A stretch of DNA of 64,000 nucleotides from Candidatus Woesearchaeota archaeon (GCA_964447685.1 CAYUTI010000002.1:13966-77965), one strand, 5' to 3'; counted from the stretch's first letter, positions 33,697-51,219 are shown. Notes: a model not told the origin generated them from the sequence alone. Translations and numbers: made by a program.

Positions 33697-34194
33697 TTAT
33701 TTTATGCGTTCCCATCCATTTATTCTATTCTTATTATCGATATCATAACCGCTGATACCTTTGTATTCCCAAAGTTGACCGTTAGCAAGTTTGACAATCT
33801 CACCATAACCAGCACTATGTTTTGGTTTAACTTTGCTAATATCGTTGTGGCTAACTTTATGGCTGTAATTAGTCGGAACAATTTTTCCAGACTTACCGGG
33901 TTTGGAAGCGATACCACCACCAAAAATAGTATTAATATCACGCATCCTGATTTTCTTTTTAGTGAGTGGAATCTCTTTTCCATCAATAACGACAATTATC
34001 TTAGCACCGAAATCTGAAATTTCATCTGCTTTAAAACTGATCTTATCAGATAATCCATTATCGATAGCATCTGTTAGTTTGTTAACAGCAAGAGCGTACC
34101 ATGCAGGGCCATCCATATACCTGTTATTCAAACTCCTGTTAACGGTTTTCATATCATGCTTGATAACATTAGATAGAATCTTAACATATTTCAT
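33697..34194 (-). CDS. MKYV-family protein, 165 aa
   Basis: N-terminus MKYVKILSN. Confidence 0.5.
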   Translation of the reverse strand: MKYVKILSNVIKHDMKTVNRSLNNRYMDGPAWYALAVNKLTDAIDNGLSDKISFKADEISDFGAKIIVVIDGKEIPLTKKKIRMRDINTIFGGGIASKPGKSGKIVPTNYSHKVSHNDISKVKPKHSAGYGEIVKLANGQLWEYKGISGYDIDNKNRINGWERIK

Positions 34195-34204
34195 TATTAC
34201 CTCA

Positions 34205-34621
34205 TTAAGCTGAATATTTTAACCATGCCAAAGCTTCATTCTTGCTATCGAAAAATGTTATTACGTTTATCTTTCCTTGTGAAACAACAATATACCTATT
34301 TTTAATTGGTTTAATATTGCCACCCCAAATATCAAATTTTTCAACAGCGGTATCCTGCTTACTATAAACAGGAACTTCAAAAACTGATAAATTTCCCTTC
34401 TTTTTTAAAGGAGTATGATTATTAGCATAATTAACTAAACCCTTTGTCAAAGAGTTATCTTGATTTTTGTCACCTTGTTTATCAGTTATATAAGTTGATC
34501 TAACAGGTACTGCAATACCACTTCCTGGACTGTAACTAATCCAGAAAGTAATATTTTGGAAAAATATTTTATCTCCTTTATCCCCTGTAGCAGAATCAAC
34601 TTTAACTTTTACGTATTTCAT
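34205..34621 (-). CDS. MKYV-family protein, 138 aa
   Basis: N-terminus MKYVKVKVD. Confidence 0.5.
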   Translation of the reverse strand: MKYVKVKVDSATGDKGDKIFFQNITFWISYSPGSGIAVPVRSTYITDKQGDKNQDNSLTKGLVNYANNHTPLKKKGNLSVFEVPVYSKQDTAVEKFDIWGGNIKPIKNRYIVVSQGKINVITFFDSKNEALAWLKYSA

Positions 34622-34649
34622 TGTAACCTCACAATTTGAATTTTAAGTT

Positions 34650-50100: not shown

Positions 50101-50191
50101 TTTCATCGTCGTTGTAATCATAAGCTAACAACTGATTTATTAGAAAATCATAAGTTGAAATGAAGTTGTCTTTTCCCCTAACAACATCCAT
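47114..50191 (-). CDS. large baseplate protein (gp7-sized, 1025 aa) with internal Zn-ribbon Cys cluster
   Basis: Size and position; CCCGNVPSG...CSTCGFEYDAWGGTTCPICGG cluster. Confidence 0.6.
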   Translation of the reverse strand: MDVVRGKDNFISTYDFLINQLLAYDYNDDESLKKLKMKISALDAEITQEESLGLEIVANKAYYPGQYMILTNDNGPKLMSCNTYHYSGIIGSVPLPTPSVFKIKTQYYGDVVINTEIFNGNNNNYLPVSYTKYGDMIIYQEQLYRAASDFISGTEFIITDWIQMLVREFEANTSYAVNDIILYKNSYYFVVSAFTSGDALIVKPVYFPSFWDEVGAAPLWETNIAVPVNHYDSILNELELLKEYKAAVDAGDMAAWEDIKTNRQQNVTNWVDTVNKLTGFKNKDYNLAYTKRPSLMTDIQFEEIRTEYESKITSNELGNIDDIMSKPGSVDSTSKNAKNETSALSSSSPPALIEPGLRKNGVTELNEEEPRERYSDDTYDELHDLVYAVLCPDATTRTDLRFSKGWLPNHSYQQYDFIDTFQEDAIDIDNFPSHNLNINNVDNSDLWDTWGSFGNEGHIWICRTPHNSSNIYPEFNVGRLSDLPTTSETNDPQIKIWIDPNLTSPTYQETLWVRPMWGAVNKDYIENPEPTVYPDIQWYTDIVYNSEADSDAASVASNGFSIPGSIAVGIGTVTEIIPQEHAFYEYGILPLVFYHHNAIDNDTPELKNQEWVACNAEDIGGILTTQFTYKVTDPNSIGSDGLPLDCVLVQWEDMVFRVIEEFSTIECPAMPAVVTSQILNHLSKLSYVGNVKCIKSRYRTDLGGNWMRGDDPISTRWWGLAFASQRNYIGNQNPCCCGNVPSGLDPEPIPLLRRLHDLVLCSTCGFEYDAWGGTTCPICGGTASLSRYQANTPPNPERGRIIIAQSCGRAEFLYNAVVSQAQYGQACYEYGLSPTNGCFHTIASGVSDCMSCYGIWKLVPEQHNTPINDLSFTYKKRRYINLIHTGVVAGIEWPCVAGVLDPVHGPTSIGNYYGTPEECFEAVAIVRYIAGAVEIVKTPFDLPSGTSNPGDLTFERFVVLNRRLRVNRQLINNKIIAIGDKQIGTILKCVTVPNLKPDFIQKIEDQKNQKFNISEYLRETTPEWN

Positions 50192-50211
50192 GAATGTCTC
50201 CTAACTTTATT

Positions 50212-51219
50212 CTATTTTAGATTTTCTTTTAATTCATCTAATTTTGAATCAAACAGTTTTTTATGTTTACTATCTAAAAATTGTATTATATTTTTTGCTA
50301 AATCAATATCTTCACTAAACTTGACAGGATTATTAACTATTAAATCTATCCAGCGATCACCACCAAAAAATCCTTTTTTATTTATTACATCAGTTTTGAT
50401 ATCTTTAATTAATCTATCTATACCCTTTACAGAATTTAATTTCTTTAATTCTTTTTTAAGCAAAACAGGTAATCTTTTTTCAACATATAAATAAGCTCGT
50501 TTTTTTAACTTATTTTTATAAACACCTTCTAAAGGTTTAAACAAAAGAAAACTATCTATTATATGATTTCTTGTGTATTTATTATCACTTAAAATTTCAA
50601 GTTTACGTGCAATATTCATATCGTCAAGACCATCTTCAAAACTCGAAATAAACTGTAGAAAGTGTGCATTAAATTCATGTGGATTACTGAAATATTTTGA
50701 ACCTTCTTCAGGTTGAACTATTTTCGGTATTCCAGTTTTATATTTAAGGTTATCTAATAGATGGATATACTCATGTATAAAAATTCTTTTACCTTCATTT
50801 GAACTAAATTTTTTACTTATAGAAGTACTATAATTTTTTAAATCTTTTTCTTCTAAAATATTTAAATCAATACTTTTAACTTTACTACCCTTTCCAAATG
50901 TTCCAAAATCACTAAAACTTCCAGATCTATTGTCACTCTTTTTTGAGAAAAATAGTATAATATTTACAGGAGGTATTAATTTTTTTATACTCGGTATATC
51001 ATGTAAATTTAAAAGATAACCATCATAATTATCACCACTACTATGTCCTGAACTAAAACCATCTAAATATTTATCTCTATCTTTCTTACTTAATAATTTA
51101 GAAATAGCTGTATAAATGATTTCAGCTTCTTCTATCATATTAGCATCACGTTCTATATCATAAGTTTTTATAGTGAATTGCTTAAACTGATTATCAGCTT
51201 TTATTTTCACATATTTCAT
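50212..51219 (-). CDS. MKYV-family protein, 335 aa
   Basis: N-terminus MKYVKIKAD. Confidence 0.55.
   Translation of the reverse strand: MKYVKIKADNQFKQFTIKTYDIERDANMIEEAEIIYTAISKLLSKKDRDKYLDGFSSGHSSGDNYDGYLLNLHDIPSIKKLIPPVNIILFFSKKSDNRSGSFSDFGTFGKGSKVKSIDLNILEEKDLKNYSTSISKKFSSNEGKRIFIHEYIHLLDNLKYKTGIPKIVQPEEGSKYFSNPHEFNAHFLQFISSFEDGLDDMNIARKLEILSDNKYTRNHIIDSFLLFKPLEGVYKNKLKKRAYLYVEKRLPVLLKKELKKLNSVKGIDRLIKDIKTDVINKKGFFGGDRWIDLIVNNPVKFSEDIDLAKNIIQFLDSKHKKLFDSKLDELKENLK

Follow-up and report, generated by a model that had tools for sequence, protein, structure and literature searches.

The stretch of DNA that was analysed, the window, comprises 64,000 nucleotides (nt) listed under Candidatus Woesearchaeota archaeon (GCA_964447685.1, CAYUTI010000002.1:13966-77965). 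It encodes sheath, gp5-like hub, PAAR, gp25-like, wedge, Tail_P2_I and connector proteins as well as a large helicase, and the phage to which these genes belong is a divergent, uncultured large myovirus. The best match of its sheath is that of Vibrio phage GR11A. The window has a guanine-plus-cytosine (GC) content of about 30% and nearly all of its genes are encoded on the minus strand. Interspersed with the virion genes are 16 small, otherwise unrelated minus-strand genes whose products have an N-terminal 9-mer resembling MKYVKIKSD in common, here called the leader. These genes are closely packed, have the same orientation as the structural genes, and encode proteins of 63 to 335 amino acids (aa). 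The gene calls are simple first-ATG open reading frames (ORFs), and the figures for this phage rest on about 72 kb of its 175-kb genome. The leader genes, followed by four genes that define their context, are:

50212..51219, minus strand: leader gene, 335 aa, MKYVKIKAD, with an HExxH motif (HEYIH)
46383..46844, minus strand: leader gene, 153 aa, MKYIKIKSL, SprT/Spartan-like zincin with the domain at residues 28-134
46061..46360, minus strand: degenerate leader gene, 99 aa, MKKVKVKVK
42414..42692, minus strand: leader gene, 92 aa, MKYVNVISS, the first of six between the wedge and Tail_P2_I genes
42085..42387, minus strand: leader gene, 100 aa, MKYVNIKII
41669..42082, minus strand: leader gene, 137 aa, MKYVKLKSD, with ATG 42082 favoured over GTG 42094
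41162..41656, minus strand: leader gene, 164 aa, MKYVTVKTD
40889..41143, minus strand: degenerate leader gene, 84 aa, MKKVVIKNN
40682..40879, minus strand: leader gene, 65 aa, MKYVKLKSA, with ATG 40879 favoured over TTG 40885
39101..39298, minus strand: leader gene, 65 aa, MKYVRIVAL, with a TATAAATA box 21 nt upstream (39319-39326)
37205..37570, minus strand: leader gene, 121 aa, MKYVKILSD
34205..34621, minus strand: leader gene, 138 aa, MKYVKVKVD
33697..34194, minus strand: leader gene, 165 aa, MKYVKILSN
13251..13505, minus strand: added degenerate leader gene, 84 aa, MKKIRITLK
13079..13270, minus strand: added leader gene, 63 aa, MKYTIIRSA
6774..7148, minus strand: leader gene, 124 aa, MKYVYINTT, between the connector and large helicase genes
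42747..45482, minus strand: 911-aa baseplate wedge protein, the query that found relatives
39359..40564, minus strand: Tail_P2_I-family baseplate protein, 401 aa
9606..10724, minus strand: head-tail connector protein, phrog_17327
2122..5937, minus strand: 1271-aa helicase, placed like Motura gp182, phiRSL1 ORF129 and, probably, PaBG gp202

Twelve of the leader genes, named here by their start coordinates, begin with MKY[VI] (51219, 46844, 42692, 42387, 42082, 41656, 40879, 39298, 37570, 34621, 34194, and 7148), and two begin with the degenerate MKKV (46360 and 41143). These 14 had been listed in an earlier reading of the DNA, the sequence-only reading, and all are present on the minus strand at these coordinates. 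The full listing of N-termini added 13270 and 13505. Bulk amino-acid frequencies predict 0.04 MKY[VI] starts in the 84 called genes, and 12 are seen (12-13 for MKY[VIT]). Likewise, ATGAAATATGT occurs 8 times with 0.22 expected from shuffles, and KY[VI]x[ILV] is found inside proteins just twice in 19,199 internal residues. Composition bias, which could have explained the number of motifs, does not account for these counts. The shared heptapeptide MKYV[KN][IVL]K of the sequence-only reading is genuine and beyond chance, and the motif is longer than was described, since the conserved stretch reaches residue 9 (M-K-Y-V-K-[ILV]-K-[STAV]-[DN]).

The claim that the motif is conserved at the nucleotide level needs correction, because its codons vary as those of the genome do and the repeat is only about 25 nt long. 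Valine is encoded by GTA, GTT, GTC, and GTG, tyrosine by TAT and TAC, and position 6 by ATT, ATA, GTT, and CTT, in proportions similar to genome-wide codon usage. The DNA repeat at the gene starts has 80-92% identity and no conserved flanks; the first 27 coding nt of the 42082 and 40879 genes are identical at 26 positions. It is the peptide, and not the DNA, that is conserved. A Shine-Dalgarno-like sequence is located upstream of every member. Scans of the window for sigma-70 promoters and terminators were at chance level, and around the motif no conserved flank, 3' boundary, or excess of promoters or terminators was found. The T4 late-promoter consensus, TATAAATA, is present 31 times in the window with 17 expected. 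Its copies include 39319-39326, 32665-32672, and 20574-20581, and some are just upstream of minus-strand genes, including leader gene 39298.

Past the leader, an all-against-all BLASTP of the members found nothing. With the first 10 residues removed, Smith-Waterman comparison with shuffles gave a mean z of 0.10 (sd 1.02, maximum 3.5, 91 pairs), in agreement with the earlier statement that the downstream sequences are unrelated. A Pfam scan of all 16 members and a PHROGs scan of 10 matched a family in 46844 only. The SprT-like HExxH domain that had been noticed in one member is well supported in this protein. It matches PF10263 (E 2.7e-10), and H103, E104, H107, and H122, which make up the HExxH and a downstream histidine, are invariant in the alignment. 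The AlphaFold2 (AF2) model has a predicted local distance difference test (pLDDT) score of 89.7 and a Foldseek match to Spartan (6MDW/6MDX) with a probability of 1.0. The model shows residues 1-11 as coil, with a pLDDT of about 63, ahead of a fold that begins at residue 12-20; by this prediction the leader extends freely from the N-terminus and is not a core strand. SprT homologues elsewhere have other N-termini or the leader of their own phage. A single-sequence AF2 model of the 42082 product reached a pLDDT of 57, which is too poor for fold comparison. For the 335-aa member, 51219, there was no homologue among 5.8 billion proteins, and when it was compared with the SprT profile by hhalign, the HExxH region alone was aligned at a probability of 1%, which is not significant. 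Nine members were found in the collection, every one as a singleton cluster and all on one 174,909-bp contig. The leader proteins of the window are basic, with a median isoelectric point (pI) of 9.5 compared with 6.2 for untagged proteins of up to 350 aa (p = 2e-4).

Relatives of the phage were retrieved with the 911-aa wedge protein, the gene for which has four or more internal repeats of some 61 nt each at 42849-44550 of the window (an 'EPDWP/EPVWP...G..V.DG' motif). The gp25-like, wedge, and Tail_P2_I genes are adjacent in the relative loci L113, L114, L115, and L118, and in L116 one PcfJ-like gene alone separates wedge from Tail_P2_I. In the window, six leader genes (40.7-42.7 kb) are found between these two. 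The closest relative found, L112 (75% wedge identity), cannot be compared at this gap, as its contig stops just past the wedge gene. It does not have the SprT and 99-aa genes. At the position of the 335-aa MKYVKIKAD/HEYIH gene, it has a 174-aa MEYVKLKSG gene with HELIH. These positional counterparts, 51219 and L112_5652, have the leader and the zinc motif in common and nothing else; hhalign of L112_5652 with the SprT profile also aligned the HExxH region alone and was not significant. In the loci retrieved with the wedge protein, no MKY[VI] or MKK[VI] gene start with a ribosome-binding site ahead of it was found, even at 27% GC. The leader genes are lineage-specific accessory additions to a conserved baseplate gene order and to virion operons. 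No match was obtained when 19 kb was compared by megablast with 50,697 phage records, and a search for relatives with the 401-aa baseplate protein alone found none. In L113, a 209-kb relative, a ClpP-family protease gene (L113:8935-9540) is directly upstream of the gp25-like baseplate gene.

Leaders of this kind are also present in a group of cultured phages that comprises Achromobacter phage Motura, Burkholderia phages BCSR5 and BcepSauron, Ralstonia phage phiRSL1, Pseudomonas phage Lu11, and Vibrio phage GR11A. In Motura, 195 of 221 kb and 7,471 candidate starts were scanned with the profile M-x-IQAAxRLxA. The profile was built from the same 16 ORFs that it matches, so that the test lies in there being no other match in the remaining 150 kb or so. 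All 16 leader genes map to 112.9-145.2 kb, on the same strand as the virion genes. No leader gene is present among the called genes of the approximately 150 kb of replication and small-gene regions, and of the 53,848 internal windows just one scored as high as the threshold. The gene order in Motura is tail fibres, seven leader genes, connector gp166, eight leader genes, SprT gp178, and HNH, followed by giant helicase gp182, head maturation protease gp185, ATPase, and major head protein, and then sheath, tube, and one leader gene. Pfam recognised neither the head maturation protease nor the ATPase of Motura. Equivalent arrays surround the connector and helicase genes in phiRSL1, BCSR5, and GR11A. 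Window gene 7148 is located in the connector-to-helicase stretch, which in Motura-like phages contains many of the leader genes. The leader proteins of Motura are basic as well (pI 9.7 compared with 5.7). The giant helicase of the Motura/phiRSL1 block probably corresponds to PaBG gp202; PaBG virions contain this 221-kDa helicase-like protein, and the gel study lists 14 abundant proteins (PMC7412058). The leader genes of Motura, phiRSL1, and the like are annotated as hypothetical in database records. A comparison of jumbo phages reported one to three SprT-like peptidases in this group and did not mention a leader (PMC7824862). No description of the leader was found in the searchable literature, the coverage of which is partial.

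Leader arrays were further explored in 31 IMG/VR loci that were chosen by SprT homology and contain SprT-like genes. An array was scored as at least three genes within a locus that are alike at 5 or more of 8 residues (positions 2-9). Arrays were identified in 12 of the 31 loci, over a GC range of 0.26-0.60, and each has its own consensus. Among these are MKIEAAxRLxA (9-10 genes in L126), MKINSAQRLKAT, MKLEAKQRL, M[KE]LQAKQRL, MK[IV]x[IV]SLSA, MEILVSLSA, MRKVIIAG, and MRKITVRF. In L126, the conserved arginine is encoded by six codons and the conserved leucine by five. L123 has a row of four genes that start with MKYITILAD, MKYVLIASD, MKYSIILAS, and MKYILISSN, of which two are SprT-like and two are not; its SprT homologue P0073 adjoins the gp5-like hub gene. 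Loci with a single MKYVK hit served as controls and were not matched for phage type. Arrays were found in 2 of 109 control loci in IMG/VR, both of them genuine MKYLKTYENL arrays with the larger on a 348-kb contig, and in 1 of 120 in metagenomes. The latter is L269, a relative of the window phage, in which MKYVKVKMK and MKYVKINKK genes are found on either side of the connector homologue. These 109 and 120 loci came from a 21-nt pattern and are nearly all single chance hits; an exact 27-nt pattern had no hits in IMG/VR. The gene families beside arrays in metagenomic loci include those for connector (phrog_17327), head maturation protease, portal, and terminase, and the 'head maturation protease' phrog_18299 (Motura gp185, phiRSL1 ORF132) is beside leader arrays in relatives.

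A survey of 80 leader proteins from 15 phage loci indicated what these leaders are attached to. Six of the proteins are SprT-like, five have a GNAT domain (Acetyltransf_1), three DUF3175, and two NUDIX, and there is one each with saccharopine dehydrogenase, RNase T, dUTPase, ankyrin, and ProQ_C domains. One more is a T7 gp0.7-like kinase (PHROG match). The SprT-like proteins start with MKYIKIKSL in the window, with MKYVLIASD or MKYILISSN in L123, and with MKIFVSLSA in L148. The leader follows the phage and not the cargo. The same architecture, with other leaders (MKIEAAxRLxA, MKIxISLSA, MEIQAAxRLxA), is present throughout the Lu11/phiRSL1/Motura-like large myoviruses.

Some further observations were made in these loci. 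L050:1719-10918 and L080 (IMG/VR, 348 kb and 88 kb) contain 7-8 neighbouring MKYLKTYE[NE]L starts and also a MKIRNGFVSNSSSSSF pair. MKYLKTYE[NE]L recalls MKTYQEFIAE, the capsid-targeting sequence (CTS) of phage T4, and is closer to it than the window leader is, although this is a resemblance only. Near the connector gene in L269 (5154-5823), there are two extremely basic small proteins rich in lysine and arginine (MAKKKKAPAKRKVS...), which could be DNA-condensing internal proteins. An LYHGTT motif, typical of H-Y-E ADP-ribosyltransferases (ARTs), comes directly after the local leader in two unrelated phages, in Motura gp162 (L156:33057-33581) and in L123:1608-2207. This ART-like similarity was rejected for want of significance: the pairwise BLASTP match spans 11 residues (E 0.027), PDB gave no hit, and the Pfam PARP match has an E of 0.007.

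These facts call for a portable peptide that is under purifying selection, is recognised at a free N-terminus, is lineage-specific, is joined to cargo that changes, and is expressed from virion operons. The leader can possibly be explained as a portable, phage-specific virion-loading tag like the T4 CTS, and we give this reading a probability of roughly 0.45. It explains the data best because the peptide is constrained, the cargo is non-homologous, the N-terminus is predicted to be free, and the genes are accessory ones in virion operons; and also because relatives carry their own leaders on diverse enzymes, which in Motura are confined to the virion block. The leader would mark a fast-changing set of small, mostly basic accessory proteins, namely the SprT-like protease, the second HExxH protein, and orphans, that would be produced together with the virion parts. 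A phage-encoded assembly component would recognise the free N-terminal peptide, and the proteins would be incorporated into the particle and enter the host along with the DNA. Incorporation into virions, a receptor, possible cleavage, and a destination in the head or the tail are all inferred. There is also overlap between the kinds of cargo seen here and those of injected polyvalent proteins (PMC7824862).

Several points weigh against a virion-loading tag. The T4 protease motif L/I-x-E is absent after the leader, where position 9 is D, N, A, or L, and no prohead protease was found in the window or a 10-kb extension. Most of the window members are among baseplate and tail-fibre genes and not head genes. 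The dUTPase, NUDIX, and homospermidine-synthase-like cargo in relatives are ordinary cytoplasmic enzymes for which a need for injection is not obvious. Basicity does not hold as a general property of leader proteins, since it fails in the other loci (pooled p = 0.4). SprT homology was the criterion by which the SprT-bearing loci were chosen, and the controls are unmatched for phage type. The leader types also differ, from the strand-like MKYVKIK to the helix-like MKIEAAxRLxA, and may not all be the same thing. Finally, early elongation in Escherichia coli reporters is best with MKY and K-I near the start (PMC6920384). The packaging tag that the sequence-only reading had proposed after T4 is thus retained in part: the peptide constraint, the diverse cargo, and the virion-operon context agree with it, and the missing L/I-x-E and the mostly baseplate and tail-fibre setting do not.

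Another reading of the leader is as a standardised translation-start module, in which the first 5-9 codons are kept for efficient initiation or early elongation and new genes are recombined onto a proven start. AADUAU and AAVAUU, which place Lys/Asn and then Tyr/Ile at codons 3-5, give the best yields in E. coli, and the amino acids themselves are in part responsible (PMC6920384). MKYVKIK holds both K-Y and K-I, and Shine-Dalgarno-like sequences are present in all members. However, the other genes of the window, including those for the abundant sheath, tube-region, and baseplate proteins, do without the leader, and in the 195 kb of Motura that were scanned it is absent from every called gene outside of the virion block. 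In GC-rich relatives, the leaders are not rich in A/U and their conservation reaches residues 8-11 (RLxA), past codons 3-5, just as that of the window motif reaches residue 9. A module of this kind seems unlikely. Even less can be said for a DNA or RNA element, either a recombination boundary for cassette exchange or a RegA-like repressor operator over the first codons. A family of 25-nt direct repeats at gene starts and mosaic, variable gene sets would suit such an element, but there are synonymous and conservative non-synonymous changes throughout the motif, no conserved flank, 3' boundary, or promoter or terminator excess accompanies it, and the same peptide logic is found over a GC range of 0.26-0.60 with unrelated nucleotide sequences. 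This makes it very improbable. The regulatory or translation-initiation element of the sequence-only reading is therefore disfavoured at the nucleotide level by the synonymous variation, and what is left of it is a possible effect of the peptide on the start of translation.

The leader could also be an N-terminal degron or docking peptide for an intracellular machine, such as a host or phage Clp-type protease, an AAA+ chaperone, or another complex, that gives its proteins a shared half-life or location in the cell. The N-terminus is predicted to be free and unstructured, and ordinary enzymes are among the cargo. ClpX reportedly recognises N-terminal motifs that starts of the form Met-basic-hydrophobic-hydrophobic resemble. 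ClpP, ClpS, and ClpA/X are encoded by phages of the group (PMC7824862), and a ClpP gene is in the L113 baseplate region. Yet confinement to the virion gene block is not explained, a leader that changes from phage to phage suits a phage-encoded partner better than a conserved host protease, and no Clp gene was seen in the window, so that this reading is rather unlikely. Serial duplication, in which fast-evolving paralogues or a gene start copied onto new sequence leave a relic with no shared targeting role, would fit the tandem runs (six in a row at 40.7-42.7 kb), the 26 of 27 identical first coding nt of 42082 and 40879, the fast turnover of gene content between close relatives, and the likeness of 51219 and L112_5652 in the leader and HExxH only. 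It is quite improbable when set against proteins of 63-335 aa with no residual similarity past the leader, clearly non-homologous Pfam domains that bear the leader in relatives, and a leader modelled outside of the SprT fold. Nine residues are near-identical, the rest is unrecognisable, and synonymous sites vary; therefore, there is purifying selection on the peptide, which also argues against duplication. For the same reasons, the null z-scores after residue 10 and the modelled position of the SprT leader, the divergent paralogue family suggested earlier is not favoured.

The virion-loading tag has several parallels in known systems. The window leader has only M-K in common with the T4 sequence and no L/I-x-E site follows it. 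Like the CTS of IPI, IPII, and IPIII, it is a short leader at the extreme N-terminus of otherwise unrelated proteins, and in the window the cargo is basic (pI 9.5). The T4 leader has about 10 residues, is found on polymorphic, lysine-rich small proteins, and is portable, and the gene sets vary between close relatives (PMC3012670). T4 has three such proteins, compared with 16 in this phage and another 16 in Motura; recognisable enzymes are part of the cargo here, and the genes are spread over baseplate, tail-fibre, and neck operons, with packaging and any cleavage being predictions. Large heads such as those of phiKZ and SPN3US are loaded with many non-structural proteins, and paralogue-rich clusters are near head genes (PMC5694885, PMC7411985). 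The inner-body proteins of these phages, which are of another lineage, are made with propeptides that are cleaved at A/S/G-x-E, and no identical N-terminal 9-mer is known among them. The antirestriction Dar proteins of P1, that is, the DarB helicase/methylase and its partners, are packaged in the head and recall the virion-associated giant helicase-family protein of PaBG (gp202); in this phage group, small accessory genes cluster around the corresponding helicase gene. In P1, an N-terminal region is required for packaging. P1 is not known to have a short leader common to many proteins, however.

Polyvalent proteins (Iyer et al. 2017, cited in PMC7824862) have similar contents, such as zincin/SprT-ArdC peptidases, GNAT, ART, and nucleotide-targeting enzymes, and their domains are believed to enter the host together with the DNA and to act against its defences (PMC7824862). 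In those, the domains are fused into one giant protein, whereas here they are separate small proteins that each have a leader. The MIX, FIX, and RIX markers of type VI secretion system effectors are also N-terminal markers on polymorphic effectors near VgrG/PAAR-like genes, and the window leader genes flank gp5-like, PAAR, and gp25-like genes. These markers are domains of tens to hundreds of residues, serve bacterial secretion, and have no homology to the leader, so this is an analogy only. The translational ramp, K/N-Y/I (Verma et al. 2019), likewise places Lys-Tyr or Lys-Ile right after the start codon. It involves codons 3-5 in any gene, whereas the leader has 9-11 residues in a subset of virion-operon genes, and GC-rich relatives use quite different leader sequences.

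A broader proposal, more tentative than the tag itself and doubtful at present, is that the Lu11/phiRSL1/Motura/GR11A-like myoviruses and the window phage share an undescribed cargo-addressing system in which a lineage-specific, co-evolving leader sends single-domain enzymes into the virion. SprT proteases, GNAT acetyltransferases, NUDIX hydrolases, kinases, dUTPase, and orphans would be delivered with the DNA, as a functionally disassembled version of polyvalent proteins. CTS-like leaders are possibly a general undescribed feature of this large phage group. If the leader is a virion-loading tag, it flags delivered effectors among the hypothetical genes of a large and widespread group of phages, and the tagged genes would be prime candidates for anti-defence and host-takeover functions. 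The capsid-targeting principle of T4 would then be far more general and more heavily used than its three internal proteins suggest, and a compact tag of 9-12 residues would be available for loading foreign proteins in other phage chassis. Even if the role is translational or proteolytic, a phage-specific N-terminal code at the peptide level, on up to 16 non-homologous genes per genome, stands. It provides a simple sequence rule for better calling of start codons and for functional grouping of orphan genes.

Other shared N-termini were seen in the same phage. A second one, MKTVKIPANVAKAL and variants, is found on 5-6 small genes of 61-148 aa (L122:3573-6923). These genes are upstream of the tail sheath gene, some 1-7 kb to the right of where the window ends. 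The BLASTP similarity of their products is mainly within the first 20-30 residues. This set may be a second leader family of the phage, and two families could mean two distinct destinations in the particle. Three small genes at 21463-22302 and 25597-25971 of the window have a MAFTW/MAFKW start (MAFTWTNISK, MAFTWNPISV, and MAFKWNSKEV) and are probably true paralogues. The products of 27189-27710 (173 aa) and 28167-30080 (637 aa) both begin with MA[IT]VTPLA[FL]Y[NQ]GN, and the 637-aa protein is fibre-like with many SIA/AES-type repeats.

The window contains additional genes that can be mentioned. Two neighbouring paralogues of about 540-550 aa (17235-20552) have no PHROG match and have 'L(D/E)EIKDS.RGDW' near the N-terminus of both. 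Two tandem radical-SAM-like proteins (phrog_1802) are encoded within the structural gene block at 22823-25571. A glycosyltransferase and methyltransferase fusion of about 750-770 aa is encoded in the tail-fibre region (34862-37171) and is kept in the 209-kb relative (L113:17014-19269).

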